From positions 939-64,938 of the forward strand of contig JBAYIC010000004.1 in assembly GCA_041665845.1 (NCBI GenBank): 64,000 bases of DNA, in the 5' to 3' direction. This document shows, piece after piece, positions 1,879 to 24,931 of this stretch. How positions within the stretch are numbered: the first letter of the stretch is position 1; each line of letters starts with the position of its first letter. The position numbers were made by a program, and so were the translations under genes. The notes under the pieces are model-generated. The model saw only the letters and a program-made list of their open reading frames with translations, made no database searches and was not told where the DNA came from. Source of the stretch: Patescibacteria group bacterium. GTDB taxonomy: Bacteria; Patescibacteriota; Patescibacteriia; Patescibacteriales; UBA12465.

Positions 1879-1893
1879 ATAACACAAAGGGGG

Positions 1894-2445: not shown

Positions 2446-2448
2446 AAA

Positions 2449-7792: not shown

Positions 7793-7850
7793 CAAAAAAG
7801 CCTGACCAAAAAATCAGGTTGCTTTTACTTTTTAAAATATAAAATTCTTT

Positions 7851-8054: not shown

Positions 8055-8128
8055 ATAATTTAAACTAAGTGTAATTAAAATTATTATATCATCTAATAAC
8101 GACGGTGCAAGTCGAAATCTAAACCCAA

Positions 8129-8158
8129 GAAAAAAAGCGCCGAATTTCTTCGACGCTT
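8129..8158 (-). terminator. Rho-independent terminator closing the paralog/fusion operon
   Basis: Minus strand AGCGTCGAA-GAAA-TTCGGCGCT followed by a T-run. Confidence 0.65.
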
Positions 8159-8181
8159 CACATATAAGTCTTTTTGACTTT

Positions 8182-9681: not shown

Positions 9682-9723
9682 TCTTTTTAATTTTTGGTTA
9701 TACAATAAATACAATTACTACAA

Positions 9724-10494: not shown

Positions 10495-11251
10495 TTCTTA
10501 CTCCTAATGTTAACAACATTAACTTAGTTTTTGCTCCCAAAAACAAATCAGGAAAACTAGCCATCTCTTCAATTTCACTTAAAGCGTTAGCTCGCATTTT
10601 CATATTATTAGTAGTACAAATACTAGCCAACATTTTAAATCTAGTCTCTTTCTCTTCCGTCATGTTCGCGTGATAGAAAATATGTTCTAAACATTTTTTC
10701 AGAGAATATACGCTTTGATTAGTGCCTATATCTTGTCTGTCAATAATATATTTCCAATCTTTAGCATTTAATTGTCTATTGAATTTAAAGCTCAGGAGGA
10801 ACGGGAAAATTATCGTCGAACCTTCAACATCAACATAAAAGTCAATCTTCAAGATAAGACATTTATCAGTATCCCAGGGCCTTTCCCAATCCTGATCATC
10901 GGGAAGCTGAATTATCTGACAAAAGCATTTCCCCCAAAAAGGTTTCTGGTAAATAGACGGTTCATCCTCATCAATATTAGTTAAAATCACTTCTTTTTCA
11001 TTAAACTTGAAAACCGTAATCTTTGTCCTCACTATCACTAAATGAAGAATCACGAAAATCAAAATGTATAGAAGGAAAAAGCTCATGGCCTGATAAAAAC
11101 TATGTAAACCTTTTTCCGAAGGCCAATAAGGAGCAACAAAAAGAGCGAAATGCAAAGAAAATGCTATCAAGGCAATAAATACTCCAAAAGTAGCGGGTTT
11201 CTGAGCTGCCCTAACAAAATACTGTTTTAAGTATTCCTTAAATTGTTTCAT
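10487..11251 (-). CDS. Paralog 2 of 4: two-TM membrane protein of unknown function
   Basis: Motifs YLKQYFVRAAQKP, IYQKPFWGK, LPDDQDW, NAKDW, YSLKKCLEHIF, SFPDLF. It overlaps paralog 3 by 14 nt. Confidence 0.7.
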   Translation of the reverse strand: MKQFKEYLKQYFVRAAQKPATFGVFIALIAFSLHFALFVAPYWPSEKGLHSFYQAMSFFLLYILIFVILHLVIVRTKITVFKFNEKEVILTNIDEDEPSIYQKPFWGKCFCQIIQLPDDQDWERPWDTDKCLILKIDFYVDVEGSTIIFPFLLSFKFNRQLNAKDWKYIIDRQDIGTNQSVYSLKKCLEHIFYHANMTEEKETRFKMLASICTTNNMKMRANALSEIEEMASFPDLFLGAKTKLMLLTLGVRNA

Positions 11252-12065
11252 CTTCCAGATTTTTTACAGGTTTAAGTGGTTTTTCTAATAATTCATCATC
11301 AACAGAAATATTGTTAGATAATCTAATGTTCATAACAGTAAGAGTAGAAAAAAGGTCTCCAAACAAGAACCCCAATTTTACTAATTCTTGTTCTAATTTC
11401 TTTACCGTAATTTTTTCCTCTTTCCATTTGAGAAGTTGTTCTTTTACAACCGCTTCATTTTCCATCAAACTCGCAGTTACTATATTCTCTAAACATTTTT
11501 GGAAACTAAAAACTGTGCAATTTTTTCTATCAGCACCTTGTCTGTTAATCATTTCTTCAAGTTCTTTCGCTTGAAAATCCTTATAGAGATAGAGATCAAG
11601 ATAAAAGGCTAGGTAAGCCCAGTACTGGCCAATAACGTCATAGGGCAGAATTTCCAAACTTAGTTTCTTGTTCCTTAGGTCTAAATCATCGCTACTTAAA
11701 TCCCAATTTTCTGGAAAAACTATTTCAATAGCGATGGGTTCACCCCAAACTGGAAATTTATAAATCTCCGTCTCTTTTTTATCATCATAGCGCAAAAGGA
11801 TTATTTTGTTTTTCCGTTGCGGAAAAACGGTAATCCGAATATCTTTAACTGCTAGATGTAAAAACCAAAAGAAACAGACGCAGAGGAACAGAAATCCTAA
11901 AGTAATCTCCAGTGGAATTTCTAAGCACTTTTTTGAATCAACAAGCATGGCCGAGCCAAATACAATTAAAAACACAATCGTAGCGGCGTATAGAGCCCAG
12001 ACAAACGGGCTACCGGCCGCATACAAGAAATACTCTTTGATTAACCCCTTGATTAACTTTTTCAT
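11238..12065 (-). CDS. Paralog 3 of 4: two-TM membrane protein of unknown function
   Basis: Motifs LIKEYFLYAAGSP, IYKFPVWGE, FPENWDL, FQAKELEE, FSFQKCLENIV. ATGA overlap with paralog 4. Confidence 0.7.
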   Translation of the reverse strand: MKKLIKGLIKEYFLYAAGSPFVWALYAATIVFLIVFGSAMLVDSKKCLEIPLEITLGFLFLCVCFFWFLHLAVKDIRITVFPQRKNKIILLRYDDKKETEIYKFPVWGEPIAIEIVFPENWDLSSDDLDLRNKKLSLEILPYDVIGQYWAYLAFYLDLYLYKDFQAKELEEMINRQGADRKNCTVFSFQKCLENIVTASLMENEAVVKEQLLKWKEEKITVKKLEQELVKLGFLFGDLFSTLTVMNIRLSNNISVDDELLEKPLKPVKNLEDETI

Positions 12066-12844
12066 TTTTCTTCTTTTTTTGGATTGGTGTGTGAAAACTC
12101 CAGAGGCAAAAGCCTCATTTCAATAACTTCAATATTTGCAAAGAAGTTTTTAGGAAAAAGACTTAATGGCTCGAGCTCTTTGGTTAATTCCCAAGAAGTC
12201 ATTAGGTGCGCTTGGCATTTAAATAGATGAGGAATAATTTTCTCAATATTCTTAGCACAACGATTCGTAATAAGATTTTGCAAACAAGTTTGAAAATGAA
12301 AAACATGGTTATGCCTATCAATTTCTTTTTGTTCCTTAATTAAATCTTCTAAATCTTTGGCCTGAAAACTACCGCTAAAATTTAGCAAAAATACAAATGT
12401 TAGGTTCGCTAAATTTTTCTCATCAAGTGATATGGCTACTTCTAATCTGATTTCCCTCGCTATAGAGTCCTTATTTAAATCCCAAAATACCGGGAAATAA
12501 ATTCTAACATAAGGTACTTTGCCCCAAATTGGGTTTCTATAAATACGTGAAGAAGAATTCTTCGGCCTCAGCAGGACAATCATTCTTTCGTTAGAAAAGA
12601 AGTTAGTCATAAACCTCAAAGGAATAGCCAAGTTCAACAATAAAAAAGCAACCAAAATAGCCAAAAAACAAATATAAATATCCTGTTTAACGGCGTTGTA
12701 GACATCATTGTTTATTGCAACAATTTTAGCGGCTACAAGAGCTGGAATGAGAAAAACTAAAGCCACAACAAAAGCGGCTTTAAACGGACGATTAGCTGCC
12801 CATAAGAAATAACTTTGGATAAACTTTTCGATAATTTGTTTCAT
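12062..12844 (-). CDS. Paralog 4 of 4: two-TM membrane protein of unknown function (first gene of operon)
   Basis: Motifs FIQSYFLWAANRP, IYRNPIWGK, FPVFWDL, FQAKDLEDL, FHFQTCLQNLI, LFPKNFF. The TGA stop lies inside the ATGA overlap. Confidence 0.7.
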   Translation of the reverse strand: MKQIIEKFIQSYFLWAANRPFKAAFVVALVFLIPALVAAKIVAINNDVYNAVKQDIYICFLAILVAFLLLNLAIPLRFMTNFFSNERMIVLLRPKNSSSRIYRNPIWGKVPYVRIYFPVFWDLNKDSIAREIRLEVAISLDEKNLANLTFVFLLNFSGSFQAKDLEDLIKEQKEIDRHNHVFHFQTCLQNLITNRCAKNIEKIIPHLFKCQAHLMTSWELTKELEPLSLFPKNFFANIEVIEMRLLPLEFSHTNPKKEEK

Positions 12845-12961
12845 TGTAATTAGTATAAAGGTTAATATTAAGTTAATTATTCAGCCCACCTTATAATCAA
12901 GATAAACTCAATAATTAACCTAATCTTCCCCTTGTTTTTTAAAGATCTGATTTAACAGTTT

Positions 12962-12990
12962 ACATTAACATAGAAGCTAAATTGGGTCAA
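12962..12990 (-). promoter_or_regulatory. Promoter of the four-paralog/fusion operon
   Basis: Minus strand TTGACC (12990-12985), 17-nt spacer, TAATGT (12967-12962). About 110-nt leader. Confidence 0.5.
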
Positions 12991-13002
12991 CATGTAAAAA
13001 CC

Positions 13003-13034
13003 AAAAAGGCGAGACTTCTAAGTCCCGCCTTTTT
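13003..13034 (-). terminator. Terminator after the EEP-family gene
   Basis: Minus strand GGCGGGACTT-AGA-AGTCTCGCC hairpin followed by a T-run. Confidence 0.65.
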
Positions 13035-13052
13035 AAATAGAAATATCTTATT

Positions 13053-13823
13053 TTAGTCTAGCTTACATTTTACAAAAAGAGACCTGTGATCAGAAATATA
13101 CTTACCTAAGATAGCTTTCGAGGCTTTAAGGTCGCGCACAAAAAACCAATCTAGTTTCAAATGAAATATTTCCCATCTAATACTAAGTATAGACCAGGTT
13201 GTTTTGGAAATATCAGTCGCCTCCTTAAGCCCCTTCTGTTTAGCAATTTCTACAAAAGAATATCTCTCATCGTTAATCAACTCTTTTTCTCCTATCACAA
13301 GACTTTTATCTGGTACATTATGAAACCACTTCACAAATTTACGGCCAAAACCGTGAGCCGGGATAGTAGTGTTAAAATCTCCACAAATAATTGTTGACCC
13401 TTGATGATTTTTAGAATTAGCAATAACAAAGTTTAGCGCCCTAGCTCTTTCTCTAGGACCAATACCAATAATTTCAAAATGACAATTATAAATTTTTAAT
13501 ATTTTATTACCAATCTTAATCTTGGCCCAAAGCACTTCACCGGTAGATTTATCAAGGAATGACGGACAATTAATTTGGCCGTAAGCAATAATCTTAAACT
13601 TACTTAAAATAACATTGATACCGTCTTTATGCTCACATGAAAAAACATAATTATATTTTTGCGATTGCTTAAAATAATCTAACTTATCAATAATAGTATT
13701 TCCCTCTTGTAAACAAACAATATCGGCACCTATTTTTTCAAGCTCCGGTTTGATTTTTTTAAAACTAGTATGAGTATAATATTTTTTACCTTGGATGTTC
13801 CAATCTAAGACAGAAAAATTCAT
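13053..13823 (-). CDS. Endonuclease/exonuclease/phosphatase (EEP) family protein
   Basis: WNIQG, DIVCLQE, ICGDFN and SDHRSL motifs in the canonical EEP order. Confidence 0.8.
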   Translation of the reverse strand: MNFSVLDWNIQGKKYYTHTSFKKIKPELEKIGADIVCLQEGNTIIDKLDYFKQSQKYNYVFSCEHKDGINVILSKFKIIAYGQINCPSFLDKSTGEVLWAKIKIGNKILKIYNCHFEIIGIGPRERARALNFVIANSKNHQGSTIICGDFNTTIPAHGFGRKFVKWFHNVPDKSLVIGEKELINDERYSFVEIAKQKGLKEATDISKTTWSILSIRWEIFHLKLDWFFVRDLKASKAILGKYISDHRSLFVKCKLD

Positions 13824-13840
13824 TTTAATATTTTAATTCG

Positions 13841-14383
13841 TTAAGCTCTTTTTTTGTTTCCTACTATATAACTCCAAAGACTGCGGCGATTTAATTTTGT
13901 CTGTTCTAGAGGATGTGGTGTTGCTTGCGCCATTAAATTAGGCTCTAAGTCAGCTGATTTTGTATACTTAGCTTCCGGTTCATTTTTAATTTCACTTCTG
14001 ATCAAAGCTGAAACTTTTTTAGCTTCCTCTTTTTGATCTTCTTCACTTAACGACTCACGGTAAGCTAAGGCTGATTTTCTTACTTGAGTAATATCTAAAC
14101 CTTTCGGCATTTCTCCTATTCCATTTAAATAATCATTACTAATTTTTCCAAACGTTAAATTATTTTTATCTTCTTCCGGAGTAATGCGCTCATAAATCTT
14201 TTCTTCTGCACTCGAATCATCTTCTTCTCCATATAAACCAGCATTTTCAGAAATACTGGTCGCTGTTTTATAAGGCGAAGTTTCAAAACTTTTTGCGCTT
14301 AAATCGTTACCATAAAGACGCGTCATTTCCTCTTGCCCTTTATTACCATCATTATGCGAATTGAGTTCTTCAAATTTTGGCAT
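13841..14383 (-). CDS. Hypothetical acidic, low-complexity protein
   Basis: 180-aa ORF with its own promoter TTGACA-16-TAAAAT near 14420-14448. No recognisable domain. Confidence 0.5.
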   Translation of the reverse strand: MPKFEELNSHNDGNKGQEEMTRLYGNDLSAKSFETSPYKTATSISENAGLYGEEDDSSAEEKIYERITPEEDKNNLTFGKISNDYLNGIGEMPKGLDITQVRKSALAYRESLSEEDQKEEAKKVSALIRSEIKNEPEAKYTKSADLEPNLMAQATPHPLEQTKLNRRSLWSYIVGNKKRA

Positions 14384-14477
14384 ATAATTTTATTAATCTT
14401 AAATAAAGTCTAGCTATTCATAATTTTAAGCGGGAAGCTTTAATTTGTCAAAAAATTTTCCTAGAAAGGCTGGGATA

Positions 14478-14619
14478 AATTAAAAGACTCCATGAACATG
14501 AAGTCTTAAAGCCGGTTGCTGTCGGTGCAGATAGAAGATCATAATCTAAATATGGCTCACCATATAAGATTTTCGAACTCACCCAAAATCTAATAGCATA
14601 ATGATATGATTTATGAACT
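14478..14619 (-). ncRNA. Candidate small non-coding RNA (unclassified)
   Basis: Consensus promoter TTGACA (14654-14649), 17 nt, TATACT (14631-14626). A hairpin plus U-run terminator lies at 14507-14474. There is an internal 12-bp hairpin AAUCUUAUAUGG-UGAG-CCAUAUUUAGAUU, and no convincing ORF. Confidence 0.35.
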
Positions 14620-14699
14620 ATTGATAGTATAACACAGTTATAAATAATTGTCAAGACCTGGCTAATGGGTTATCGGTAAGCCCTTTTTACTGTGTAGAT

Positions 14700-15146
14700 T
14701 TAAGTTACTGACGAAATTTTCTTAACATAATTCTCCAAGATATCATTAGTCCCAGGAAATAGGGGCGATGGTAAAGCATTAATATCAAACCATTTCCACT
14801 CTTCGCATTTATCCGGCTCATTAACAATCGCATCTCCCTGTATATATTCTCCTTCAAGAATAATAGTAATATGACGAACAAATTGAGGTGGTAAACAATT
14901 ATCTCTCACGGCTATTATTTTATTTAGAATTTTAACTTCTAAATTATTACCCAATTCTTCTTTTATTTCTCGATGAGCAGCGGCCATAATTTCTTCTTCA
15001 TCTAAAATATGCCCACCGGGAAAACTCCAGGTTCCATGTCCAGCGCTATTTAATCTCTTGCCGAGTAAAACCTGGTAAGTACTATTAAAAATAGCGACAT
15101 CAACCGCTAGCGCAATTTTATTAGCTTTTGTTTTTTCCGCTTCCAT
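14700..15146 (-). CDS. NUDIX hydrolase
   Basis: Nudix box GGHILDEEEIMAAAHREIKEELG. The ATG at 15146 leaves a 4-nt gap to the upstream gene, whereas the longer track ORF would overlap it. Confidence 0.85.
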   Translation of the reverse strand: MEAEKTKANKIALAVDVAIFNSTYQVLLGKRLNSAGHGTWSFPGGHILDEEEIMAAAHREIKEELGNNLEVKILNKIIAVRDNCLPPQFVRHITIILEGEYIQGDAIVNEPDKCEEWKWFDINALPSPLFPGTNDILENYVKKISSVT

Positions 15147-15150
15147 ATAT

Positions 15151-16218
15151 TTATAGTTTTCTAATAATCCCCTTATTAGCATTAACTTCAATTAAATCCC
15201 CATCTTGGAAAAGTTTCGTAGCTACTTTTGTTCCAATAATACAAGGTTTTTTTAATTCTCTCGCGACGATAGCCGCATGGCAAGTTAAACCGCCCTCATC
15301 AGTAATAATAGCGGCTGCTTTTCTCATGGCTGATAAATACTCTGGCGACGTCATCGGCGTAACCAAAATTTCTCCGGATTTAAAAGCAGAAACGCCATAT
15401 GAGTTATAAATCTTTTTTACTTTACCTCTAATAATATCGCCACGGCAAGCAACAACGCCAGAAATGCTATTTGCATTGCTAGTTGGCTCTAAATTAGTAA
15501 TAGCTAATTTATTTTTAACTAGAAATTTATTAAAATTATCTGAGATAATTATTTTACCATTAATATAGATGTAACCCCGGGCTCTTTTTTCTAGAATGTT
15601 TTTACTTGGTAATTTTTTCTTTTCAATAAAATTTTTAATCTCTAAAACGGTTAACAACCGAACATATTCTGACGGATAATTATGTTTTTTGAGCATTGGT
15701 CCCAGCCAGGAACGTAAATGAAGGCCAACAATTTTCAGCAGCCCCTCACTTTGCTCACGGCTATGAAGTAAACGATTAAGAACTTCCTGTCCATCTTTTC
15801 CATGAATTTTTAAAAAGTCTTCCCGCCAAGGACCGGCAATAAAAATTCCTAATGGATAATAAGGATACATCTCTTTGAATAATTTAGTGATGATTGTAAG
15901 ATGTTTTTTATTATTTTTAATTTTAGAAATAGGTGAATTTATAGTTAAACGCAAGTCTTTAATCAACTTTAAAAAAGCATCCTGTTTAGTAATAGAAAAT
16001 ATTTCACTATCAATGGATTTATGTATTAAAAAGCTTTTAAGCTTCTCCATATCTTTTTGATAGCGGTACCAATAAAAAGTAACGCCATCAAAATGCACAA
16101 TTTGATCAGTTATTCCCTTGCCCCAAATTTTAGGAGCATCAATTACTAAAGAATCTCGGATAATGTTTTGTACCCATTGATCAAAATCACGTGTAAAAAT
16201 TAAATTTATCTTTTTCAT
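15151..16218 (-). CDS. PEP-utilising enzyme mobile (swivelling phosphohistidine) domain protein, stand-alone
   Basis: The C-terminus carries TDEGGLTCHAAIVARELKKPCI (PEP-utilising enzyme His signature). No ATP-grasp or PEP/pyruvate TIM-barrel domain is visible. Confidence 0.75.
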   Translation of the reverse strand: MKKINLIFTRDFDQWVQNIIRDSLVIDAPKIWGKGITDQIVHFDGVTFYWYRYQKDMEKLKSFLIHKSIDSEIFSITKQDAFLKLIKDLRLTINSPISKIKNNKKHLTIITKLFKEMYPYYPLGIFIAGPWREDFLKIHGKDGQEVLNRLLHSREQSEGLLKIVGLHLRSWLGPMLKKHNYPSEYVRLLTVLEIKNFIEKKKLPSKNILEKRARGYIYINGKIIISDNFNKFLVKNKLAITNLEPTSNANSISGVVACRGDIIRGKVKKIYNSYGVSAFKSGEILVTPMTSPEYLSAMRKAAAIITDEGGLTCHAAIVARELKKPCIIGTKVATKLFQDGDLIEVNANKGIIRKL

Positions 16219-16334
16219 ATGTTTAGCTTGTTCCTTAAAATCATTATACCATCAGACTAGTATCTTTAAAAATAAAAAAAGAAGGCGACATGATAATTAC
16301 ACGCGCCTTCGAGAATAAAATAACTTACTTTTAA

Positions 16335-16640
16335 TCAAGCAAATGGATTAATAACTTTCAGATCTTCCTCCCGAACGGGGAGGCCTTCTTTCCTGCAAAA
16401 TTCGGCAAGGAATTTGTAGAATTTTTGCTCTTCAGAAATATGTACAGTAACCTGAACGTGGTAGCCAAAAGGGTGAGAGTAATACCCATCAATGGCCTTT
16501 GGTTCTTCACTTGAGTGGATTTCTTTGACTTTAAACGCTTCTCCGAAAGCAAGGGCAAAGTCCCACACCTTGTCTTTAGGTATAACAACATCTAATTTCA
16601 GCTGTTTGCTATAAATAATTACTTCGTTGTCCTCTATCAT
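16335..16640 (-). CDS. Hypothetical protein (101 aa)
   Basis: ORF with an AAGGAG Shine-Dalgarno sequence 7 nt upstream. It is the last gene of a four-gene unit and is followed by a terminator at about 16273-16312. Confidence 0.55.
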   Translation of the reverse strand: MIEDNEVIIYSKQLKLDVVIPKDKVWDFALAFGEAFKVKEIHSSEEPKAIDGYYSHPFGYHVQVTVHISEEQKFYKFLAEFCRKEGLPVREEDLKVINPFA

Positions 16641-16693
16641 AACGCATTCTCCTTTTAATGTTTAAGTGTTTGTTTTGTTTGGTTTTAAGTAAC

Positions 16694-16969
16694 TTATTGG
16701 TTAATCGGTTGTTCTACAATCCCAAAACCATGCATCCTTAAGAAATCGATAATTTCAAGGGTTGTAATTTCAGGAATTAATATTTCTGAAAAACCTTCTT
16801 TTAATTCTGAGACACTTATAATTCCGCAGTAATATGTCCTTAATAGTTTTTCAATTTTGGCATACATTACATCGTCGTAGTTTATAAGCAAACGCAAGGC
16901 AAATCCTTTTGATTCATTAAAAGGAACCATTTCGGTTTTTACTAAAACTTCATTTACTAATAGGTTCAT
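16694..16969 (-). CDS. Hypothetical protein (91 aa)
   Basis: ORF in an operon context only. Confidence 0.45.
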   Translation of the reverse strand: MNLLVNEVLVKTEMVPFNESKGFALRLLINYDDVMYAKIEKLLRTYYCGIISVSELKEGFSEILIPEITTLEIIDFLRMHGFGIVEQPINQ

Positions 16970-17007
16970 GTTAACTTTTTTAGTGATGTTTTTCGGTATT
17001 ATTGTTA

Positions 17008-17265
17008 TTATTTCAATATCTTCTTGAACATACCGGCTAGAATAATGCCGGTAATTTCCAGAACTGAGATCGCAAAGGCAATGTTAACTGCTTGATTCAA
17101 AGTAAGCGGTTTAAAAATTATGCCTTCAATAGGAAGTTGAACTATTACATAGTTCCACGCGTAAAGAATAGCGACAGCCGTTACTATAACCGCTGCGACA
17201 AAAGCCAAAAGTAATTTTAAGAACATGACATAATAATTTTTACCATTTATCTGACCAATCTTCAA
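17008..17265 (-). CDS. Small membrane protein (85 aa, two predicted TM helices)
   Basis: Hydrophobic stretches LLLAFVAAVIVTAVAILYAW and AFAISVLEITGIILAGMF. It overlaps the upstream gene by 26 nt. Confidence 0.5.
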   Translation of the reverse strand: MKIGQINGKNYYVMFLKLLLAFVAAVIVTAVAILYAWNYVIVQLPIEGIIFKPLTLNQAVNIAFAISVLEITGIILAGMFKKILK

Positions 17266-17761
17266 TCTTTTCTCCCCAATTAGCGTTCAAATGAAATTTC
17301 TGATCGTGTTCCCCCCAGCCTGCACAAAAAAGTATTCTTTTATCATCCTTTTCAATGCTCATCACAGCTACCTCTGCGACAAACTCGTGCCCTTTTGGTA
17401 GACTATTGCGATTTAATCGTATCTTTCCTTTCGGACCGATAAAAGAGGCACACCCGGGAATGTGATCGAATCCAAGCAAAATAGCTTCTTCAAGGGTCTT
17501 GGCTGAGTACATTATCAGTACATGATCGGCCGGTTTTTTCCTTAAGACATTTTCAATAACACCAAAATCATCATCAATGGAATCGATTTGTTCAATCCTT
17601 TTTTTCCAAGCATCAATGATAATGTCATGATCCTCCGGAATTGTAGTAGCCTTGATCAGTTCAGCTAAAATTTTAAGGTCACCAACAAACCAGCAATTAA
17701 TTGCACTCACGACTGATTTGTGAAATGGTTTTCCTAATTCGTTTTTTTCCATTTTGTCCAT
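17240..17761 (-). CDS. Hypothetical protein (173 aa)
   Basis: ORF with an AGGAGAA Shine-Dalgarno sequence. Promoter TTGACA-17-GTATAT at about 17812-17840. Confidence 0.55.
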   Translation of the reverse strand: MDKMEKNELGKPFHKSVVSAINCWFVGDLKILAELIKATTIPEDHDIIIDAWKKRIEQIDSIDDDFGVIENVLRKKPADHVLIMYSAKTLEEAILLGFDHIPGCASFIGPKGKIRLNRNSLPKGHEFVAEVAVMSIEKDDKRILFCAGWGEHDQKFHLNANWGEKIEDWSDKW

Positions 17762-17912
17762 AACAACGGGTTCTCCTATAATTAGTGAATATTTGTAAAA
17801 GTTCTATAATAACTAAAAAATATACCTTAATATTCCTATTTTTGTCAATTATTTATAAATCCCATTACCATGCCCTTTATAAATACCAGAATATTTAATA
17901 TAATTGAGCTGT

Positions 17913-18755
17913 ATGATATTCTTAAACTTTACAACGATTTCAATAATTTCCGCCTTCTTTGCGGCTATTGCCAATATCATGGCGCGGACGATTTTAAAAG
18001 ACTTGAAGGCTAAGGATATTTTGGCTATTAACTTCTTCACCATGGGAGCGGTTCTTCTAATTTTATCACCTTTCTTTTATAAATTTACCCCCTCTCCTTT
18101 AAATCTCGGCCTGTTAGTGTTAATCGCTCTGATTGATACGGTAGCAAATTATTTTTACTTTCAAACTTTTGAAAAGACTTCAGCCAGCATTGCTTCCCCC
18201 TTGCTTTCACTAGCTCCCGGGTTTACATTTCTTTTCGGTTGGCTCTTACTAAGTGAACCGGTAAACCTGAGAACAATTTTATTATGCTTAATAATTTTAA
18301 TTCTAGTAATTTTATTCTCGGTAAGTCTCTCCGACTTTCGTCAATTTAAAAAGAATACCCTTTGGCCGGCATTATTATCATCATTATTATTTGGTCTATC
18401 AGCTATTCCTTCTAAATTTTTATTAGACTCAGCTCAAGCAGTTAACGCCCCAACCCTATACATGTTTCGGGCCTGCTTTATTGCTCTTTTCTCAGTATTA
18501 TTTTTCAAATTTACAATTCAGAATATTTCTATCAAACAATACCGAACAATATTTTTTCGAGGACTATTTGTTATTGCACAATGGATACTTCTTTATTGGG
18601 CCCTATCGAAAGGTAGCGCTGGAGTTACTTTGACGCTTGGAAATATAACGCCAATATTTGTTTTTATTTTAAGCATAATCTTTCTAAAAGAAAAACCGAC
18701 TTTAAAGAAATTGTTGGCCGCCGGTCTGGTTCTTGTCTTATCATTTTTAATTTGA
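17913..18755 (+). CDS. EamA/DMT-family transporter
   Basis: About ten hydrophobic helices in two EamA-like halves. The track start at 17904 is TTG; the first ATG is at 17913. Confidence 0.8.
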   Translation: MIFLNFTTISIISAFFAAIANIMARTILKDLKAKDILAINFFTMGAVLLILSPFFYKFTPSPLNLGLLVLIALIDTVANYFYFQTFEKTSASIASPLLSLAPGFTFLFGWLLLSEPVNLRTILLCLIILILVILFSVSLSDFRQFKKNTLWPALLSSLLFGLSAIPSKFLLDSAQAVNAPTLYMFRACFIALFSVLFFKFTIQNISIKQYRTIFFRGLFVIAQWILLYWALSKGSAGVTLTLGNITPIFVFILSIIFLKEKPTLKKLLAAGLVLVLSFLI

Positions 18756-18785
18756 TAGCCTTTATAATAATTGAACTATAAATAT

Positions 18786-19802
18786 ATGAGTAAAACCCTT
18801 CTTCTCTTCTGTGGCGGAACAATCTCAATGCATAAGAATAACGAAACAAAAGCCCTAGACGTTTCCCACGGTTATGACCAGTTATTGAAGTTGGAACCGC
18901 GCTTTTCTCAAATTTGTGAAGTTGATATTGAATTTATAGATAATATCGACAGTACAAATATGACTAGCGAACACTGGTCTAGAATTGCCGAGACTATTGG
19001 GAAAAAATATAATGATTACGATGGTTTTGTAATAACCATGGGGACAAATACGATGGCCTATTGTTCGGCCGCCCTTTCTTTTGCTTTACAAAATATTGGC
19101 AAACCAGTTGTTTTAACTGGGGCACAAATTCCTGCTGAATCACTTTCGACAGATGCCCGTAATAACTTTATCAATGCCTTAAGACTCTCAACCCTAGACT
19201 TGGCAGGTGTCTTTATTGTTTTTGGTAGTAAAATTATAAAAGGTTGTCGAGCGAAAAAAGTTAGTGAATCAGAGCTAGACGCTTTTAGGACTTTTAATCA
19301 AAAAGATTTTGGCGAAATAGGCGTTGGAACTATTTTTAACTTCAAACAACCTCGTCACCAAGAACCTCTAAAAGTGCAGAGCAAATTTACTGAACAAATA
19401 GTTTGTTTAACTTTAATTCCTGGACTACAATCTAATATTTTAAAGGGTTTAATTGATTCAGGAACTAGAGGTTTTGTTTTACGCGCTTATGGATCCGGTG
19501 ATATTCCCTATGATTTCGAAGAATCTTTGCTGTATGCTAAAAATAAAAAAATCCCAATTGTTGTGACGACTCAGTGTCCTGGCGGAGCTACCGTGATGGG
19601 AATAAACGATGTTGGTTTAAAAGCTCTCCAAACTGGCGTTATTCAAGCTTTTGATATGTGTATGGAGGCAATGAGTACAAAATTAATGTGGCTTCTTGGT
19701 CAAAAGACTCCTTATGAAAAAATTAAAGACTTAATGGAAACTAATTTAATTGGTGAGGTGGATTCGTCACGGGCAGCAGCAATTATGGGAGTCGGAAAAT
19801 AA
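18786..19802 (+). CDS. ansA: L-asparaginase, type I family
   Basis: LLFCGGTISM (catalytic Thr motif), ITMGTNTMAY, GAQIPA. The track start at 18771 is TTG; the ATG is at 18786. Confidence 0.85.
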   Translation: MSKTLLLFCGGTISMHKNNETKALDVSHGYDQLLKLEPRFSQICEVDIEFIDNIDSTNMTSEHWSRIAETIGKKYNDYDGFVITMGTNTMAYCSAALSFALQNIGKPVVLTGAQIPAESLSTDARNNFINALRLSTLDLAGVFIVFGSKIIKGCRAKKVSESELDAFRTFNQKDFGEIGVGTIFNFKQPRHQEPLKVQSKFTEQIVCLTLIPGLQSNILKGLIDSGTRGFVLRAYGSGDIPYDFEESLLYAKNKKIPIVVTTQCPGGATVMGINDVGLKALQTGVIQAFDMCMEAMSTKLMWLLGQKTPYEKIKDLMETNLIGEVDSSRAAAIMGVGK

Positions 19803-19828
19803 ACCTAAACAAATAGATTTAAAACTGA

Positions 19829-19899
19829 GTACTAAAAAATGCCTTAAAGTTAAGGCATTTTTTTATTAAGCTCTTTTTCGCGGGTTGGTTATAAATTTT
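19829..19899. repeat. R-element copy 1 (hairpin + conserved 30-nt core)
   Basis: Hairpin aatgccttaa/ttaaggcatt (19838-19859), then the core agctctttttcgcgggttggttataaatttt (19869-19899). Confidence 0.7.
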
Positions 19900-19964
19900 G
19901 GGAAATAAAAAATCCCGAGGTTAATCAGGATTTTTTTAATGTTTGTGTTGTTTATTATTTGAGT

Positions 19965-20498
19965 TCATTTGAGCTCAATCGTAAAACATTGATAGCTTGG
20001 CTTATCAGGAGCACCATCTGATTTTACAGATAATTTACAAAATCGTGATAAGATAATATTTATATCTTCTACAATTTTTTGTAAAGAATTGGGTTCACCA
20101 TTAAAAAGATCTATACCGAGATTCCTGATATGCATATCATCCACATAAATAAATGTCGTGGTTATATACATATTTGGGTTTTTCTCTGGGTGGATTTTGA
20201 TTGACTCGTTAATAAGCACTTGAAGTAGGGTTCCTTTTTCTTGATGGCTCATTATATTGCTTCCACCAACATAAGCATGTATATACGCTTTTAACTGCAA
20301 TAACTTTGCGCAGGGTCCTCCCGGCAGAAGCTTTATTAATTCTTCAGATAATCTACTCGCAATCGCTGTTTTCGATTTATAAACTTCTTTATTGCTTTCT
20401 TCAATCTTTTTAAGCAATGCTGTTTTTTTAACTTCATTGTTTTTTAACATTTCCTGAAGCTCGGAAATTCCATTTTTTAAAAAATCATTTTTCGCCAT
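19965..20498 (-). CDS. Hypothetical protein (177 aa), coiled-coil N-terminus
   Basis: ORF 25 nt downstream of the 257-aa gene. No recognisable domain. Confidence 0.5.
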   Translation of the reverse strand: MAKNDFLKNGISELQEMLKNNEVKKTALLKKIEESNKEVYKSKTAIASRLSEELIKLLPGGPCAKLLQLKAYIHAYVGGSNIMSHQEKGTLLQVLINESIKIHPEKNPNMYITTTFIYVDDMHIRNLGIDLFNGEPNSLQKIVEDINIILSRFCKLSVKSDGAPDKPSYQCFTIELK

Positions 20499-20523
20499 TT
20501 TGTCCTTTTTAGGATTATTAATT

Positions 20524-21297
20524 TTACGCTTGGTTGATTTTTTTCCAAGCAGCTACACCGTCGATGATTCTAAAATCGGTTTCACTTATTTTCCAATAAA
20601 AACCAATAAGTTCACCTGGTTTCGCGTAGATATTACCAAAAAAAACAACCTCGGCCTCAAGCATTTCACCGCTGGTAAAAATAACCGAATATTTTCTACC
20701 TTCATAATTTTTTGGTAATTTAAGGTAATGAGAGAGCCCCTCTATTCTCTGGCCATTAGATCTTTTCAATAAGTCAAAATACTCGTCCCATAAAGGACTC
20801 TGCTCTTCGCCGTTATCAATTATTTCTTTTAGCGCGGCGGCATTTTCTGCCTGATTTTTACTTAATTTATAAATCAGATAAGATTCTTGACCATCATCCG
20901 GTTCCATATACGGGAGCAGGGAGTTAATATTTTCTTTTAACTCATTCAAATAATAACCAGGGAACTCTTTGTGGATTTTCTCAACAACAGAAATTGAACT
21001 CTGAGTGACCAAGCAATGAAAAACGTTAATGTCAGATAGACCATAAGCCGTCAGCTTAGCTAACAATTCATTTTCGAATGAATACTGGTATTCCCAGAAG
21101 ATATTATTCGCGATAGGATCTTTTAAAACCAAAAATTTAGGGATACTGATATTTGTTTCGCGAAATTTGCAAACAGAAGCTACTAATGTATCTAAAGTTT
21201 GTAAAAAATATTTTTTGCACTCTTCATCGGTGCCCGGCATATAGCTTGATGGCAAAAACGAAGTATTTACCACATAAACAATTGGATGTTTTTTCAT
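20524..21297 (-). CDS. Hypothetical protein (257 aa)
   Basis: ORF with promoter TTGACA-17-GTATAT (about 21431-21460) and a long structured leader. Confidence 0.5.
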   Translation of the reverse strand: MKKHPIVYVVNTSFLPSSYMPGTDEECKKYFLQTLDTLVASVCKFRETNISIPKFLVLKDPIANNIFWEYQYSFENELLAKLTAYGLSDINVFHCLVTQSSISVVEKIHKEFPGYYLNELKENINSLLPYMEPDDGQESYLIYKLSKNQAENAAALKEIIDNGEEQSPLWDEYFDLLKRSNGQRIEGLSHYLKLPKNYEGRKYSVIFTSGEMLEAEVVFFGNIYAKPGELIGFYWKISETDFRIIDGVAAWKKINQA

Positions 21298-21332
21298 TTT
21301 TTCTCGTTTTAATGATTATTTGTTAATTATTT

Positions 21333-21385
21333 TTTATTTAGTTACCTAAACAACCTGAAACGAGTTGCTTGGATAACTAAATAAA
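21333..21385 (-). promoter_or_regulatory. Long imperfect hairpin in the 5' leader of the 257-aa gene
   Basis: Arms tttatttagttacc (21333-21346) and ggataactaaataaa (21371-21385), plus inner pairing aacaac/gttgct. Confidence 0.4.
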
Positions 21386-21490
21386 TATTAACAATAATCA
21401 TGCATGTTAAAGTTCAATAACAGAAAAATATACCACAATGGCTTCATTTTTGTCAATTATTTACAAAATCTGCGACAATGGTATTTTTCG

Positions 21491-21560
21491 GATACTAAAA
21501 ATTACCTTAATCTTAAGGTAATTTTTAAGTGAGCTCTTTTTGCAGTTTGGTTATAAATCT
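21491..21560. repeat. R-element copy 2
   Basis: gatactaaaa + hairpin attaccttaa-tc-ttaaggtaat + core gagctctttttgcagtttggttataaatct (21531-21560). Near-identical to copy 4. Confidence 0.8.
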
Positions 21561-21615
21561 AGGTAATAAAAAAGGCCTTATTTCTAAAGCCTGTAAATTC
21601 TGCCACTGGTGATTA

Positions 21616-21825
21616 TTAATCGGACACTTCAATTACCTCCTCATTATCAGCTATCTCTATTTCCAACGGAGTCCCGTTTACTTTACGGTATGCACTATTT
21701 TTATCACCACCGTCTTTTCTGAATACAGTTATTCTCTCCTTATCTCCAGCTAACGCCTTCATCACTTCATTTTTAAAAACGAAGCTGTAGGCTCCAGATA
21801 AATCTTTAAAATGTTGAATTGCCAT
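21616..21825 (-). CDS. Hypothetical protein (69 aa)
   Basis: ORF with a GGGAGG Shine-Dalgarno sequence, flanked by R-elements 2 and 3. Confidence 0.5.
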   Translation of the reverse strand: MAIQHFKDLSGAYSFVFKNEVMKALAGDKERITVFRKDGGDKNSAYRKVNGTPLEIEIADNEEVIEVSD

Positions 21826-21950
21826 TTTTAGTTTCCTCCCATATTTTAAATTAGTATTTAATTATTAAAGTAATAAAATAACTTAACATAACCAATGGTA
21901 AATATCAATGCTTTTCTATCCCGTTAGGAGTGAGCCTAAATCGAATGGCT

Positions 21951-22020
21951 AATACCAAAAAACGCCAATGAAATGGCGTTTCTCGTTTAGAGCTCCTTTT
22001 GCGGTTTGGTTATAAATTTA
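21951..22020. repeat. R-element copy 3
   Basis: aataccaaaa + hairpin aacgcca/tggcgtt + core gagctccttttgcggtttggttataaattta (21990-22020). Confidence 0.75.
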
Positions 22021-22113
22021 GGAAAATAAAAAAGAGCCCTAGAACTCTTTTAAAATTATAATCTGACCTAGCCGCCATTCTTTTAAATGGCCATCTAGGA
22101 CAAATATATGCCA

Positions 22114-22419
22114 TTACTTTCTGACTAATTTAATAGTTACTATTGGATATTCTTCTATAACTATGAATTCTTCTTCCGGTAATTGTGCGGTCGTAAGCGC
22201 TAACTTTAATTCAGACATCCATTCAGAATGGAGTTGATGTCCCGTACGTTCTACGGTATCAACTAACTGCACAGCCGGACAGCCACATCGCAAAAAATTA
22301 ATAGCTGCTATGACATTGTTTATATAAGAACTTTTCATGCCAATTATTGGCACTTGGTTATTGTAGGCTGATATAATGCCACATTCACCATTTTGCATAA
22401 TTACTTTTTTCTGTTTCAT
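22114..22419 (-). CDS. Hypothetical protein (101 aa)
   Basis: ORF between R-elements 3 and 4. Promoter TTGACA-17-ATAATT at about 22478-22508. Confidence 0.5.
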   Translation of the reverse strand: MKQKKVIMQNGECGIISAYNNQVPIIGMKSSYINNVIAAINFLRCGCPAVQLVDTVERTGHQLHSEWMSELKLALTTAQLPEEEFIVIEEYPIVTIKLVRK

Positions 22420-22554
22420 CTTGTGCGGTTTTTAATTTATAACTATTAATTTTTAATGTTCAATTTGTTTTATAGCTTAAATTATCACTTTTAATGCCAT
22501 TTTGTCAAGGAAAATATTCCATTATTTATAAACCTAACCAAAAGATTATTCTCT

Positions 22555-22626
22555 GGATACTAAAAATTACCTTAATCTTAAGGTAATTTTTAATGGAGCT
22601 CTTTTTGCAGTTTGGTTATAAATTTT
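22555..22626. repeat. R-element copy 4
   Basis: ggatactaaaa + hairpin attaccttaa-tc-ttaaggtaat + core gagctctttttgcagtttggttataaatttt (22596-22626). It abuts the stop codon at 22628. Confidence 0.8.
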
Positions 22627-22627
22627 A

Positions 22628-23053
22628 TTAATAGAGATATTTAATTATCTCTCCTCGCCAAAGGCAAATAATAATATCAATAATTACTCCTAATAAAACA
22701 AAGGATATAATATAAGTAAAATAACGCCATAGGAAATTTTTCTTTGGTAAGTCAATTTTTCCAACCATCTCCTCCATAGCCTTTTTTGATTCATTAATAG
22801 CAGAGTCATAATCAAAAATTGAGAATAGCAATGATGCTGGTATTAAAAATAATAATACCGAAAGAATCACTTTTATATTAGTAGTAATTTTTAATAAATC
22901 CGGATTAAAACTGGCTACTACTAGCACCATGGCTGATAACGAAGCAATGGCTGGAACTAAATTTGCTTTTTGAAGAAGGCAATTCTGAAAAAAGACTAAA
23001 TGGAGTTTTAATCTTTCAAGTTTTTCTTGTTGTTCTAAGGAGAGCTCTTGCAT
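22628..23053 (-). CDS. Hypothetical membrane protein (141 aa)
   Basis: Hydrophobic segments (AIASLSAMVLVVASF, VILSVLLFLIPASLLFSIF, FTYIISFVLLGVIIDIIICLW). Confidence 0.55.
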   Translation of the reverse strand: MQELSLEQQEKLERLKLHLVFFQNCLLQKANLVPAIASLSAMVLVVASFNPDLLKITTNIKVILSVLLFLIPASLLFSIFDYDSAINESKKAMEEMVGKIDLPKKNFLWRYFTYIISFVLLGVIIDIIICLWRGEIIKYLY

Positions 23054-23065
23054 ATATTTAAATTA

Positions 23066-23114
23066 AACAACAAAAACCCCCATTACGAGGGTTTTTATAA
23101 TCTGGGGATTATAA
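23066..23114. repeat. 49-nt direct repeat, left copy (terminator hairpin + ctggggattataaa)
   Basis: acaacaaaaacccccattacgagggtttttataatctggggattataaa. 46 of 49 positions match the copy at 24798-24846. Confidence 0.85.
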
Positions 23115-23148
23115 ATTTTTGAAAACATAAAATTAAAAAAATTGTAAT

Positions 23149-24756
23149 CTATTTTATTATCGTTTTTTTCTTTTCCGGGAATGCGGCGTCCATTGCCCCT
23201 GATTGAAAGCCATCTCCCCAAAATCCGCTAGACATCTTCGCGGCCTTTTGATCAAATTCTTCCAACAAATCCTCTAGCGGTCTAACAAAAACTTTTTTTA
23301 ACCACTCCTTATCATTCTTTAAAAACCGAGTAATTATAGGGGCACTTCCACTCATAAAAAGATAATTCCCTGCTGATGGAGTAGAAATCATGGGTTTTTG
23401 TGTATCTTTATCAATTACATCCATGGGGGACAAGCACAAGACATATTCACCAATATAAAATTCTCTCTCCTTATCTCTGATAGGATCATCAGTTATAAAA
23501 ATTTTATCAATTAACTGCTTTGTATATGAGGCGACTGGGTCAATCCATCTATTTTGAGGATATCCGCCATGCATGGGATGAAAAATTCCTTCTGCGCGGC
23601 GAATAAAAAAAAGTACATACGTAATAGGAAGTGGCTCATCATAGTGAGACCTGCTATTTAGTTCAAGCTTTAAAACTCTTTTTAATAATTTATCTTTTTT
23701 CTTCGCAACTGCAATTATAGAAATTAAATACAGAGAAATAAACAATGGATAATATCTTATGCTCTTGCCCCATTCTGTATAAGGGGTGCCATCTGGTGAT
23801 TCTATTTTTCTAGATAAATATGAGAGAACTTTTACTAAAACATCGTCGTAAACCCCCTTGTCATCCTTTGAAACTAAACTAATAATTGCCGACCAAAACT
23901 CCTGAGACGCCGACCCTATGTTAGATAATATTGCCGTACTCATCTCTTTATCTTCCTTGCCAATATCCCATGGAATTACATCTGAATCTAAAAAATTATT
24001 TATTTTATTAACTTCATCAAACATACCCTTCGATACGGCGTCTTCTTCTTTTGTTAATAGAGAATTTATCAACTCCGACACTGACCCTGCTGGTTCTATA
24101 ACTTCTGGAGATTTTACGGATTTTTTTTCCTCAGCAACTCCACTCACATCGCTAGGCCTAACTTTCAATTTTTTTAATTTAATATTTAAGTCCGATATCT
24201 GCCGTTGAACATCATATATCTTCTGTTGAGAATTGTATGTATGCTCTTCTAAACGTTGACTAAAAAATCTAGCAAAATCGCCCGGCTGAGCCTTACTTGT
24301 CGTCGTACCATTACGCACATAGATATCACCAACATACCGCTTATGAATATCCTTAATAAATACGTGAGGTGGTTCATTGGACGGCGGTATGACTAATACT
24401 CCCCATTGTTTGTCATCTTTTCCAAAAATAAATAGATGGGTCGTAATAAATTGACCAATATACTTTTTAACTAAGTCATCGATGGTAGCCTGGAGGTGAT
24501 CTTCGTTATCAGGGAATGTAGTATATAATATGCTATTAGCAGAAGCACCAAATATTATAAACCCGTGATTCTTATAATGATGACAATACGTGTTTGCTAT
24601 CGCAGAGATATCTTTTAAAAATTCTCCTTGATGTTGAATATCGGACATGTTAAAAGAACTTTTTAAATCAACCTTGCCGGCTTCGCCAGTAGAAATTATC
24701 TTTGGCAAAAAACCTTCCAATGTAGCTCTATCCCATGGTAAATGTAATTCTTCCAT
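23149..24756 (-). CDS. Schlafen/AlbA_2-like putative DNA-binding domain protein with uncharacterised C-terminal region
   Basis: The N-terminal roughly 130 aa (GKVDLKSSF...FLKDISAIANT...GFIIFGA...WGVLVIPPS...PHVF) resemble the AlbA_2 pattern. The remaining roughly 400 aa are unassigned. Confidence 0.55.
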   Translation of the reverse strand: MEELHLPWDRATLEGFLPKIISTGEAGKVDLKSSFNMSDIQHQGEFLKDISAIANTYCHHYKNHGFIIFGASANSILYTTFPDNEDHLQATIDDLVKKYIGQFITTHLFIFGKDDKQWGVLVIPPSNEPPHVFIKDIHKRYVGDIYVRNGTTTSKAQPGDFARFFSQRLEEHTYNSQQKIYDVQRQISDLNIKLKKLKVRPSDVSGVAEEKKSVKSPEVIEPAGSVSELINSLLTKEEDAVSKGMFDEVNKINNFLDSDVIPWDIGKEDKEMSTAILSNIGSASQEFWSAIISLVSKDDKGVYDDVLVKVLSYLSRKIESPDGTPYTEWGKSIRYYPLFISLYLISIIAVAKKKDKLLKRVLKLELNSRSHYDEPLPITYVLFFIRRAEGIFHPMHGGYPQNRWIDPVASYTKQLIDKIFITDDPIRDKEREFYIGEYVLCLSPMDVIDKDTQKPMISTPSAGNYLFMSGSAPIITRFLKNDKEWLKKVFVRPLEDLLEEFDQKAAKMSSGFWGDGFQSGAMDAAFPEKKKTIIK

Positions 24757-24797
24757 ATTTATTAAAAGTATATATAGCTATTTAAAAATAATAATAT

Positions 24798-24846
24798 ACA
24801 ACAAAAACCCCCATTACGAGGGTTCCTGTAATCTGGGGATTATAAA
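24798..24846. repeat. 49-nt direct repeat, right copy, 10 nt from the tRNA-Gly 3' end
   Basis: acaacaaaaacccccattacgagggttcctgtaatctggggattataaa. Confidence 0.85.
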
Positions 24847-24856
24847 CCCCCGTAAA

Positions 24857-24931
24857 TGGAGCGGGTAACGGGAATCGAACCCGTCTATCGTGCTTGGCAA
24901 GCACGTATAATAACCACTATACTATACCCGC
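24857..24931 (-). tRNA. tRNA-Gly (anticodon GCC), CCA encoded
   Basis: Hand-folded cloverleaf. Acceptor GCGGGTA/TACCCGC, anticodon arm CGTGC-TTGCCAA-GCACG, T arm ACGGG-TTCGATT-CCCGT. Confidence 0.9.

Follow-up and report, generated by a model that had tools for sequence, protein, structure and literature searches.

Structure of the locus

A 49-nt direct repeat brackets a single gene directly downstream of a tRNA-Gly gene in a Patescibacteria group bacterium (GCA_041665845.1). The locus was analysed within a stretch of 64,000 nt (contig JBAYIC010000004.1, positions 939 to 64,938), which is called the window here and whose own numbering is used throughout; contigs and loci taken for comparison are designated by L and a number. 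On the minus strand of the window, tig, smpB, the transfer-messenger RNA (tmRNA) gene, tRNA-Leu, a helix-turn-helix (HTH) gene of 220 amino acids (aa), and tRNA-Gly(GCC) follow each other in this order. Beyond tRNA-Gly there are ten nucleotides, the right (proximal) copy of the repeat, a 535-aa gene, the left (distal) copy, another 13 nt, and a 141-aa gene. The features are as follows:

24857..24931, minus strand: tRNA-Gly (GCC) with encoded CCA, the anchor of the hotspot (ARAGORN; Rfam tRNA, 64.4 bits)
24835..24851, minus strand: hairpin HP1, GGGGGTT-TAT-AATCCCC (RNA folds of the window, L019, and L021)
24798..24846, minus strand: proximal 49-mer with the heptamer O, the 3' arm of HP1, and the terminator HP2 (stem 24829-24801), ending in TTTTTGTTGT; predicted terminator of tRNA-Gly
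23149..24756, minus strand: 535-aa prokaryotic Schlafen (pSlfn) candidate defence nuclease (Pfam PF04326; PADLOC PDLC05061)
23067..23115, minus strand: distal 49-mer with O (23115-23109), the 3' arm of HP1, and HP2 (stem 23098-23070); partial duplicate
22628..23053, minus strand: 141-aa predicted membrane protein, next cassette gene, with a 49%-identical homolog in a serine-recombinase island

In a pattern search of the 64 kb the distal copy matched without and the proximal copy with three mismatches, so that 46 of the 49 positions are identical. A third copy was not found in the window, and none of 100 shuffles matched. Ungapped extension lengthens the similarity to 52 nt, 48 of which are identical (23064-23115 against 24795-24846). 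The three mismatches within the 49-mer (24828, 24826, and 24825) are transitions in the 5' arm of HP2, and the pairing of this arm with UUUUUGU is kept. The spacer between the CCA end of tRNA-Gly and the right copy is TTTACGGGGG (24856-24847), and the only open reading frame (ORF) between the two copies is that of the 535-aa protein (24756-23149). Most of this geometry had been given correctly in a preliminary description of the stretch: the identity of 46/49, the coordinates of the right copy, its distance of 10 nt to the CCA, the single bracketed gene, and the terminator hairpin in each copy. Both copies are predicted to be intrinsic terminators of the minus strand. The start of the left copy had been set at 23066 and has to be moved by one nucleotide to the right.

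The arrangement with two copies is not an assembly artefact, because both copies lie on one Logan contig of 2277 bp (L001, 100% identical) and an equally identical contig from the European Nucleotide Archive (ENA; L002) covers the junction at the left repeat. Among viral contigs the 49-mer was not found. In the metagenome collection of the Joint Genome Institute (JGI) a 22-nt core of the repeat has only three matches (L019, L020, and L021), and all of them are located at tRNA-Gly. Within the scope of the window, the viral contigs, and the JGI contigs, the 49-mer is not a module dispersed over genomes.

A conserved module follows tRNA-Gly

The 49-mer represents the 3' four-fifths of a conserved module of about 60 nt, which is found directly after tRNA-Gly(GCC) in a clade of the Patescibacteria. 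This module starts with CCA-TTTAC, continues with HP1 (GGGGG-TTTATAA-TCCCC), and ends with HP2, an intrinsic terminator of 12-13 bp followed by a U-run. At the DNA level HP1 consists of 5-bp G/C arms around the heptamer TTTATAA (termed O, 24846-24840). Folding presents HP2 as a 12-bp terminator stem with a U-run, and in the terminator prediction both copies have a 13-pair stem followed by TTTTTGTTGT on the minus strand. The folds of the two copies reach minimum free energies of -25.2 and -15.9 kcal/mol (z-scores -2.8 and -2.4).

L019 (from a 473-kb contig), L020, and L021 each contain the module once, immediately after tRNA-Gly(GCC), and continue with unrelated genes. The alignment common to these relatives reads CCA/CAA-TTTAC-GGGG[G/A]-TTTATAA-[T/A][T/C]CCC-AGATTACAGAAACCCTCGTAATGGGGGTTTTTGTT, and the changes in the HP1 arms of all three keep the pairing. 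The modules of the window and of L019 are about 91% identical, whereas the tig-smpB-tmRNA region of the same pair has 68% identity, and in L021 the module is even better conserved than tRNA-Gly itself. The sequence of the 49-mer alone is 92-96% conserved between species whose tig regions are about 68% identical at the nucleotide level. Therefore, the 94% identity of the two window copies is no proof of a recent duplication. At the mismatch positions the consensus of the relatives is ACAGAA, from which the proximal copy deviates by one and the distal copy by two changes. Both window copies carry the lineage-specific GTTGT, where the relatives have GTTAT or GTTTT.

Because the module is present once after tRNA-Gly and conserved in the relatives, the proximal copy is the native one, which is under strong constraint, and the distal copy is thus the extra one. 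The proximal copy has kept both HP1 and HP2 intact, like those of the single-copy relatives. The distal copy does not have the GGGGG 5' arm but AAAAA in its place. It begins exactly at the heptamer of the HP1 loop, ends with GTTGT five nucleotides past the U-run, and is the predicted terminator of the pSlfn gene, 13 nt in front of the ATG of the 141-aa gene.

A search of Rfam did not reveal a family for the 49-mer or for the J3 motif described below. A match to His_leader at 19831-19945 is weak (29 bits against a threshold of 49) and was judged to be due to chance.

The bracketed gene encodes a candidate Schlafen nuclease

At NCBI the 535-aa protein carries the annotation "MAG: ATP-binding protein [Patescibacteria group bacterium]". 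Its N-terminal part matches the SLFN_AlbA_2 domain PF04326 (residues 25-156, E=1.3e-10, 42.2 bits against a gathering cutoff of 25.3). In prokaryotic Schlafen defence nucleases Ex4(E/D)xK has been described as the catalytic motif (PMC13056530). In the window protein this motif is intact (E25-AGKV-D30-L-K32), with E25 and K32 invariant and D30 conserved in at least 90% of 33 homologs. The C-terminal half matches PADLOC profile PDLC05061 (PDC-S65, E=5.6e-11), although the match is restricted to residues 247-481 and to profile positions 330-552 of 592. A literature search for "PDC-S65" did not return any papers. Judged by these matches, the protein appears to be a prokaryotic Schlafen nuclease and a candidate defence protein.

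The AlphaFold model (predicted local distance difference test, pLDDT, of 81) matches the tRNase/DNA-binding domain of SAMD9 (9o0d_A) with a probability of 1.0 and E=2e-3, while the helical C-terminal half has no match among solved structures. Cleavage of tRNA by pSlfn is at most predicted by this similarity in fold. With the anti-phage pSlfn nucleases (PMC13056530) the protein shares the PF04326 domain, the Ex4(E/D)xK motif, the architecture of an N-terminal nuclease and a variable C-terminal putative sensor, and the defence-island context. It differs in its C-terminal domain, which is all-helical, related to PDC-S65, and without counterpart among solved structures. The gene represents a new member of the pSlfn family with a PDC-S65-like, all-helical C-terminal domain. 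Homologs of the gene are found next to Shedu and a MORC-like ATPase in L004, next to a methyltransferase and a DUF7380 protein near smpB in L005, and next to a deaminase and AbiE in L007.

A hotspot between tRNA-Gly and rpsA-ftsH

Eleven loci were recovered for comparison, and ten of these are from close relatives (Tig 63-83% identical). All ten have kept the order PPase-tig-smpB-tmRNA-tRNA-Leu, and tRNA-Gly is next wherever the contig reaches that far. Relatives with longer contigs have 2-5 kb of unrelated genes after tRNA-Gly before the rpsA(S1)-ftsH block begins. In the window the interval from tRNA-Gly to rpsA comprises about 19 kb:

5883..24856, no strand assigned: variable stretch from tRNA-Gly to the rpsA(S1)-ftsH block (synteny by tblastn against L008-L018; Pfam)

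The occupants include an AbiE-like pair in L013, maf in L018, and an ATPase together with a trypsin-like protease in L019. The stretch after tRNA-Gly is a hypervariable hotspot in which genes are swapped. Its defence-type content, taken over all hotspots, comprises pSlfn, AbiE, Shedu, MORC-like, and ATPase/protease genes.

The pSlfn gene itself has moved between such hotspots. Compared with the homolog of L004 it is 83% identical at the amino acid and 85.1% at the nucleotide level, while the nucleotide identities of other genes of the same genome pair are 76.5% for rpsA, 75.8% for ftsH, and 70-74% for three other core genes. Because the pSlfn gene is more similar than the core genes, it was transferred after the lineages had split, and these sequence identities characterise pSlfn as horizontally mobile defence cargo of tRNA-Gly hotspots in different lineages. 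The L004 locus (1-11800) opens with genes for a tyrosine integrase, an HTH_17 protein, and a resolvase, and the island there also contains the MORC-like ATPase, Shedu, and pSlfn. There, pSlfn is the last gene and is followed by TTCGATTCCCGTTACCCGCTC, which is the displaced 21-nt tRNA-Gly 3' end, and by a terminator. As understood in PMC4383910, this displaced end is a textbook attR. In L014 (12373-13750) tRNA-Gly directly borders on the genes for a 399-aa integrase and an excisionase-like protein, and the integrase ORF reads through the post-tRNA terminator.

It was also considered whether the repeat travels together with the gene. This was rejected, because L004, L005, and L007 do not have 49-mer-like repeats flanking their homologs and because the similarity of the window to L004 covers the ORF alone and stops at its ends.

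The closest homolog of the neighbouring 141-aa gene (49% identity) was found in L022 (428-2015). The island there starts with a 507-aa large serine recombinase, whose gene overlaps the 3' end of tRNA-Gly(TCC).

The J3 motif and a common breakpoint

Further downstream of tRNA-Gly, cassettes are separated by a 28-nt motif, ATTTATAACCAAACYGCAAAAGGAGCTC, which we call J3. Its copies are found on the minus strand between 19869 and 22633:

22596..22623, minus strand: J3 copy 1, ATTTATAACCAAACTGCAAAAAGAGCTC, followed by an A/T hairpin terminator
21990..22017, minus strand: J3 copy 2, between the 101-aa and the 69-aa gene
21531..21558, minus strand: J3 copy 3, within a 116-nt module that is 82% identical to 22518-22633
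19869..19896, minus strand: J3 copy 4 (diverged) with terminator, the last junction before the convergent asparaginase gene

All four copies of the 64-kb window thus lie within 3 kb. L019 has three (85-112, 1475-1502, and 2421-2448), and one each is found in L010 (14662-14689), L013 (13678-13705), L018 (13003-13030), and L020 (1029-1056). J3 is always located inside this hotspot, is in most copies followed by a terminator, and has been kept between genomes in which Tig is only 63% identical. About 90 nt past J3 copy 1 there is the sequence GGTTAGG-TTTATAA (22532-22526), the arm of which is complementary to the CCAAACC at the start of J3. Folding predicts long-range pairing of the module ends in two of six modules. 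Altogether four J3 modules and the two 49-mers are found within 5 kb, and the cassettes have their own promoter-like sites.

The terminator following J3 in L018, L019, and L020 is ACAAAGACAGYCCGAAAGGGCTGTTTTTGTTTT, the same as the one after tRNA-Gly in L009, L013, L014, and the attR of L004. In addition, the terminal GAGCTC of J3 sits where CCGCTC sits in the tRNA. In L018 one terminator (…AGCCCC-AAAGGGGCTGTTTTT) is present both after tRNA-Gly (12333-12375) and after J3 (13031-13070) and brackets maf. This pair parallels the duplication of the 49-mer in the window, although the terminator is a different one.

All cassette junctions (13 of 13 in six genomes) begin at TTTATAA, with one variant TTCATAA, and this applies to both types of modules. 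The heptamer occurs 2.1 times per kb in the hotspot compared with 0.64 times per kb in the window overall. The half-copies are reciprocal: the window has the heptamer with the 3' half of the module (x-O-B'), while L019 repeats the 5' half together with the heptamer in a further copy, CGTTTTCGGGGGCTTATAAA, which matches at 17 of 20 positions (none of 200 shuffles matched). The pattern may be described as cassettes bracketed by halves of TTTATAA-loop hairpins or, equivalently, as palindromic spacers of about 120 nt bounded by TTTATAA.

Two other identities of the motifs were rejected by direct reading of the sequences. J3 does not represent a decayed tRNA 3' fragment, with which it has only the terminal GCTC in common, and neither the arms nor the cores of J3 and the 49-mer fit dif/Xer or attC sites.

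In L010 (12355-12395) the sequence after tRNA-Gly is GGGGGA-TTTATAA-A-TTCATTA-TCCCCAG, so that the HP1 arms enclose a tandem of two heptamer-like words. This may be the footprint of a cassette loss or of a minimal insertion.

Origin of the duplication

We tentatively favour an att/Campbell-type insertion at the TTTATAA of the HP1 loop as origin of the duplication and assign it a probability of roughly 0.45. A mobilised one-gene cassette, circular or in another form, would have carried TTTATAA, the HP1 3' arm, and HP2 (the heptamer and the downstream 42 nt), and its crossover with the chromosomal module would have taken place at the TTTATAA loop or immediately past it. By this, tRNA-Gly would have kept an intact terminator (attL-like), and a second terminator would have been placed behind the new gene (attR-like). 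Both transcription units would stay insulated and the new gene would gain a terminator of its own. Such a unit would be released if recombination of TTTATAA with TTTATAA cut out the first cassette from a neighbouring array. The enzyme would most likely be a recombinase that is encoded elsewhere and acts on TTTATAA-loop hairpins. This scenario is favoured because the same heptamer breakpoint bounds every other cassette in the hotspot, and because it agrees with the single-copy native state, the reciprocal half-copies, the mobile cargo, the shared GTTGT, and the fact that both copies are predicted terminators.

The favoured scenario makes specific predictions for two other configurations. An empty site would consist of tRNA-Gly...TTTACGGGGG, one 49-mer, and TTAATTTAAATATATGCAAGAG on the side of the 141-aa gene. 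An excised circle would contain the junction ...TTATGTTTTCAAAAA, the 49-mer, and then ATATTATTATTTTTAAATAGC, that is ...TTTTCAAAAA / TTTATAATCCCC...GTTGT / ATATTATT.... Neither was found in any assembly holding identical proteins. Exact-protein look-ups with five window-encoded proteins and P0040 revealed only the same arrangement or contigs that end at the repeats. Several further observations also weigh against an insertion of this kind. Neither the 45 window ORFs scanned nor the hotspot regions of L013, L018, L019, and L020 revealed domains of integrases, recombinases, or transposases. The integrases of L004 and L014 use the 3' end of the tRNA and not HP1. The end of the identity at the ORF ends in L004, the only close comparison, implies that pSlfn has not travelled together with the 49-mer. 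TTTATAA is a common word in this genome of 33% G+C. Finally, the 49-mer is strongly constrained and all three substitutions are transitions in the HP2 stem that leave its pairing intact, and the similarity of the copies therefore says little about how and when the duplication happened.

The preliminary description had proposed an att-like footprint of a one-gene insertion or, alternatively, a junction duplicated by homologous exchange of a cassette, and its att-like reading is supported in part. The mobility of the gene is borne out by its homolog in the integrase island of L004 and by the nucleotide identity of 85% compared with 76% for rpsA and ftsH, and the distinction between a native and an extra copy and the hotspot also speak for the proposal. 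The empty site expected by it (tRNA-Gly, one 49-mer, 141-aa gene) was not encountered in the near-identical contigs examined, and a recombinase among the 45 window ORFs scanned and a tRNA fragment in the distal repeat are missing as well. The tRNA-Gly 3' end has no second match in the 64 kb, even if two to three mismatches are allowed. Since the distal repeat does not contain a tRNA fragment, the pair is not a classical att pair of a tRNA gene.

The duplication could also have been driven by homology, if related hotspot DNA, acquired by transformation or as a circle, had integrated by a RecA-type single crossover in the 49-nt module and thereby duplicated it. The TTTATAA boundary would then be the end of the incoming homology or a point of microhomology or slippage in the hairpin loop. 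With 92-96% identity across species the module would be a portable homology anchor, recombinase domains are absent from the scanned ORFs, GTTGT is common to both window copies, and a terminator of another type has been duplicated after tRNA-Gly and J3 in L018. However, 49 nt are near the lower limit for efficient homologous recombination, and a crossover explains neither the heptamer boundary that two unrelated module families have in common at 13 junctions in six genomes nor the reciprocal copies of the 5' and 3' halves. We therefore regard this origin as possible but rather unlikely. It is quite improbable that the locus is a decayed tRNA-Gly integrase island like those of L004 and L014, from which deletions have removed the integrase and the other cargo and left pSlfn between remnants of attL and attR. 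Relatives do have such islands at this tRNA, one of which ends with the closest pSlfn homolog as its last cargo gene. But the displaced tRNA 3' fragment is absent, the distal repeat starts inside HP1 (17 nt beyond the CCA), and the deletion would have needed an endpoint exactly at the TTTATAA that all other junctions have in common.

Another explanation does not require any mobility: two functional copies of a terminator or RNA element might have arisen by local duplication or convergence and be maintained by selection, in which case the bracketing would be uninformative on mobility. The strong conservation across species, the structure-preserving substitutions, and the placement of both copies where a terminator is needed are in line with this. 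On the other hand, ordinary terminators need to keep neither their primary sequence nor the HP1 3' arm, which is unpaired in the distal copy, the relatives have a single copy, and the gene between the copies shows an identity at the level of horizontal transfer, so that we give this explanation little credit. A repeat spread over the genome (repetitive extragenic palindrome, miniature inverted-repeat transposable element (MITE), or common terminator) that flanks the gene by chance, or a misassembly, is largely refuted. Short-read contigs do break at tRNA-Gly and at the J3 modules, and the latter have MITE-like complementary ends. Yet there are only two copies in 64 kb, the three JGI occurrences of the core are all at tRNA-Gly, viral contigs have none, and L001 and L002 confirm the junctions with 100% identity.

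A wider proposal, which we think is unlikely as it stands, concerns the whole locus. In a clade of the Patescibacteria the stretch after tRNA-Gly(GCC) would be an integron-like platform for gene capture that works without an integron integrase, using a recombinase encoded elsewhere that is specific for both structure and core sequence. Single-gene units, many of them for defence, may enter and leave at TTTATAA-loop hairpins. The 60-nt module may be the entry site, the 28-nt J3 modules may be cassette-associated sites, and the 49-nt duplication may have been caused by the re-integration of a first-position cassette.

Other genes and variants at the locus

The 19-kb variable stretch of the window contains four consecutive ORFs of 254-275 aa without Pfam match (9724-12844, minus strand), near them a gene for an Exo_endo_phos protein (13053-13823), and a gene for a 510-aa phosphoribosyltransferase (PRTase)-like protein (8182-9714), which has a homolog in the variable region of L011. 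All of these may be further island cargo. In L008 (12135-12675) about 540 nt separate tmRNA from tRNA-Leu, compared with 3-40 nt in the other relatives, and this gap is another insertion point in the same cluster of RNA genes.

The 220-aa gene between tRNA-Leu and tRNA-Gly (24936-25598, minus strand) encodes a protein composed of an HTH at the N terminus, a long helix, and an alpha/beta domain in which YWGEGD is invariant. The Patescibacteria contain more than 240 homologs of this family, many of them on contigs of about 1 kb. L026-L029 have the gene at the corresponding position; those of the L008-L019 loci that reach tRNA-Gly do not have it. The model of the protein (pLDDT 94) has no Foldseek/PDB fold match with E<0.001. 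The YWGEGD prompted a comparison with LAGLIDADG homing endonucleases, which was not supported: a Pfam match and a fold match at E<0.001 were not found, and hhalign against I-CreI gave a probability of 0.6%. A sequence search of the PDB gave only weak matches (E>0.06) to Pit-1-type DNA-binding proteins.

A contig from the same sample as L002 (L030, ENA ERZ27247322 k141_129937) is 100% identical to window positions 26424-24965. At 24965, 29 nt before the stop codon of the 220-aa gene, it diverges into IS630-like transposase sequence (HTH_23/28/29/32). It is either a strain variant with an insertion sequence or a chimeric contig.

Comparison with known systems

Williams (2002) is reportedly a reference for islands that are integrated at tRNA and tmRNA genes by tyrosine integrases. 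The same placement of genomic islands by tyrosine integrases underlies the Islander principle (PMC4383910). As in such islands, the insert of the window lies beside a tRNA gene, is bounded by direct repeats, carries defence cargo, and replaces the displaced sequence so that the function of the target is restored; L004 and L014 are true examples at the same tRNA-Gly. In contrast to them, the repeat of the window is located entirely outside the tRNA, ten nucleotides after the CCA, and the insert consists of a single gene (1.7 kb). The breakpoint is in the loop of a non-tRNA hairpin and not in the anticodon loop, the T loop, or at the acceptor junction, a displaced tRNA fragment as in L004 is missing, and the element does not encode an integrase.

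The locus resembles integrons in its fixed entry point, in what may be a tandem array of mostly single-gene units, and in a lineage-conserved site that recurs between them and is probably palindromic in part. In both, the unit beside the entry point would be the newest, and the arms of the junctions vary but stay complementary. However, none of the 45 window ORFs scanned has an IntI/Phage_integrase domain. The junctions of the window start with TTTATAA[C/T]C, and by direct reading no RYYYAAC/GTTRRRY core closes the site. In addition, the units have their own promoter-like sites and terminators, and the entry point is the terminator of a tRNA instead of attI.

MITEs and the Correia-type elements of Neisseria are small palindromic intergenic elements. 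The J3 modules of about 120 nt resemble them in their complementary ends, the internal terminator, the TTTATAA on both sides, and in breaking short-read assemblies. They differ in that the J3 copies are confined to one stretch of 3 kb close to tRNA-Gly, and elements of this type would not explain the pair of 49-mers.

Defence hotspots without identifiable mobilisation have been described in Escherichia coli, and core defence hotspots of Pseudomonas aeruginosa are cited in the same work (PMC10121019). The locus fits this class, whose occupants do not have identifiable mobility functions: the flanks (tRNA-Gly and rpsA-ftsH) are conserved, the content is variable and rich in defence genes, and some occupants come without mobility genes (PMC10121019). 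It differs by its host, which belongs to the Patescibacteria, and by motifs at the nucleotide level (the 49-mer and J3) that mark the cassette boundaries. The junctions are precise to the nucleotide, with a fixed heptamer in a hairpin loop, reciprocal half-sites, and a second motif found across genera. We know of no equivalent junction motifs in the defence hotspots of E. coli or P. aeruginosa. How defence genes move between islands without mobility genes is an open problem, for which these features offer specific tests, with the 60-nt module as a defined site. The strategy of insertion would guard the terminator of the tRNA gene and not the tRNA itself, and a Schlafen-type nuclease with a probably new C-terminal domain would be added to the sparse known defence repertoire of the Patescibacteria. 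If plain homologous recombination on a conserved terminator was at work, the repeat is an ordinary island scar. The duplication alone is indeed ordinary, and the noteworthy part compared with the known hotspots is the conserved, nucleotide-precise grammar of the junctions in Patescibacteria.

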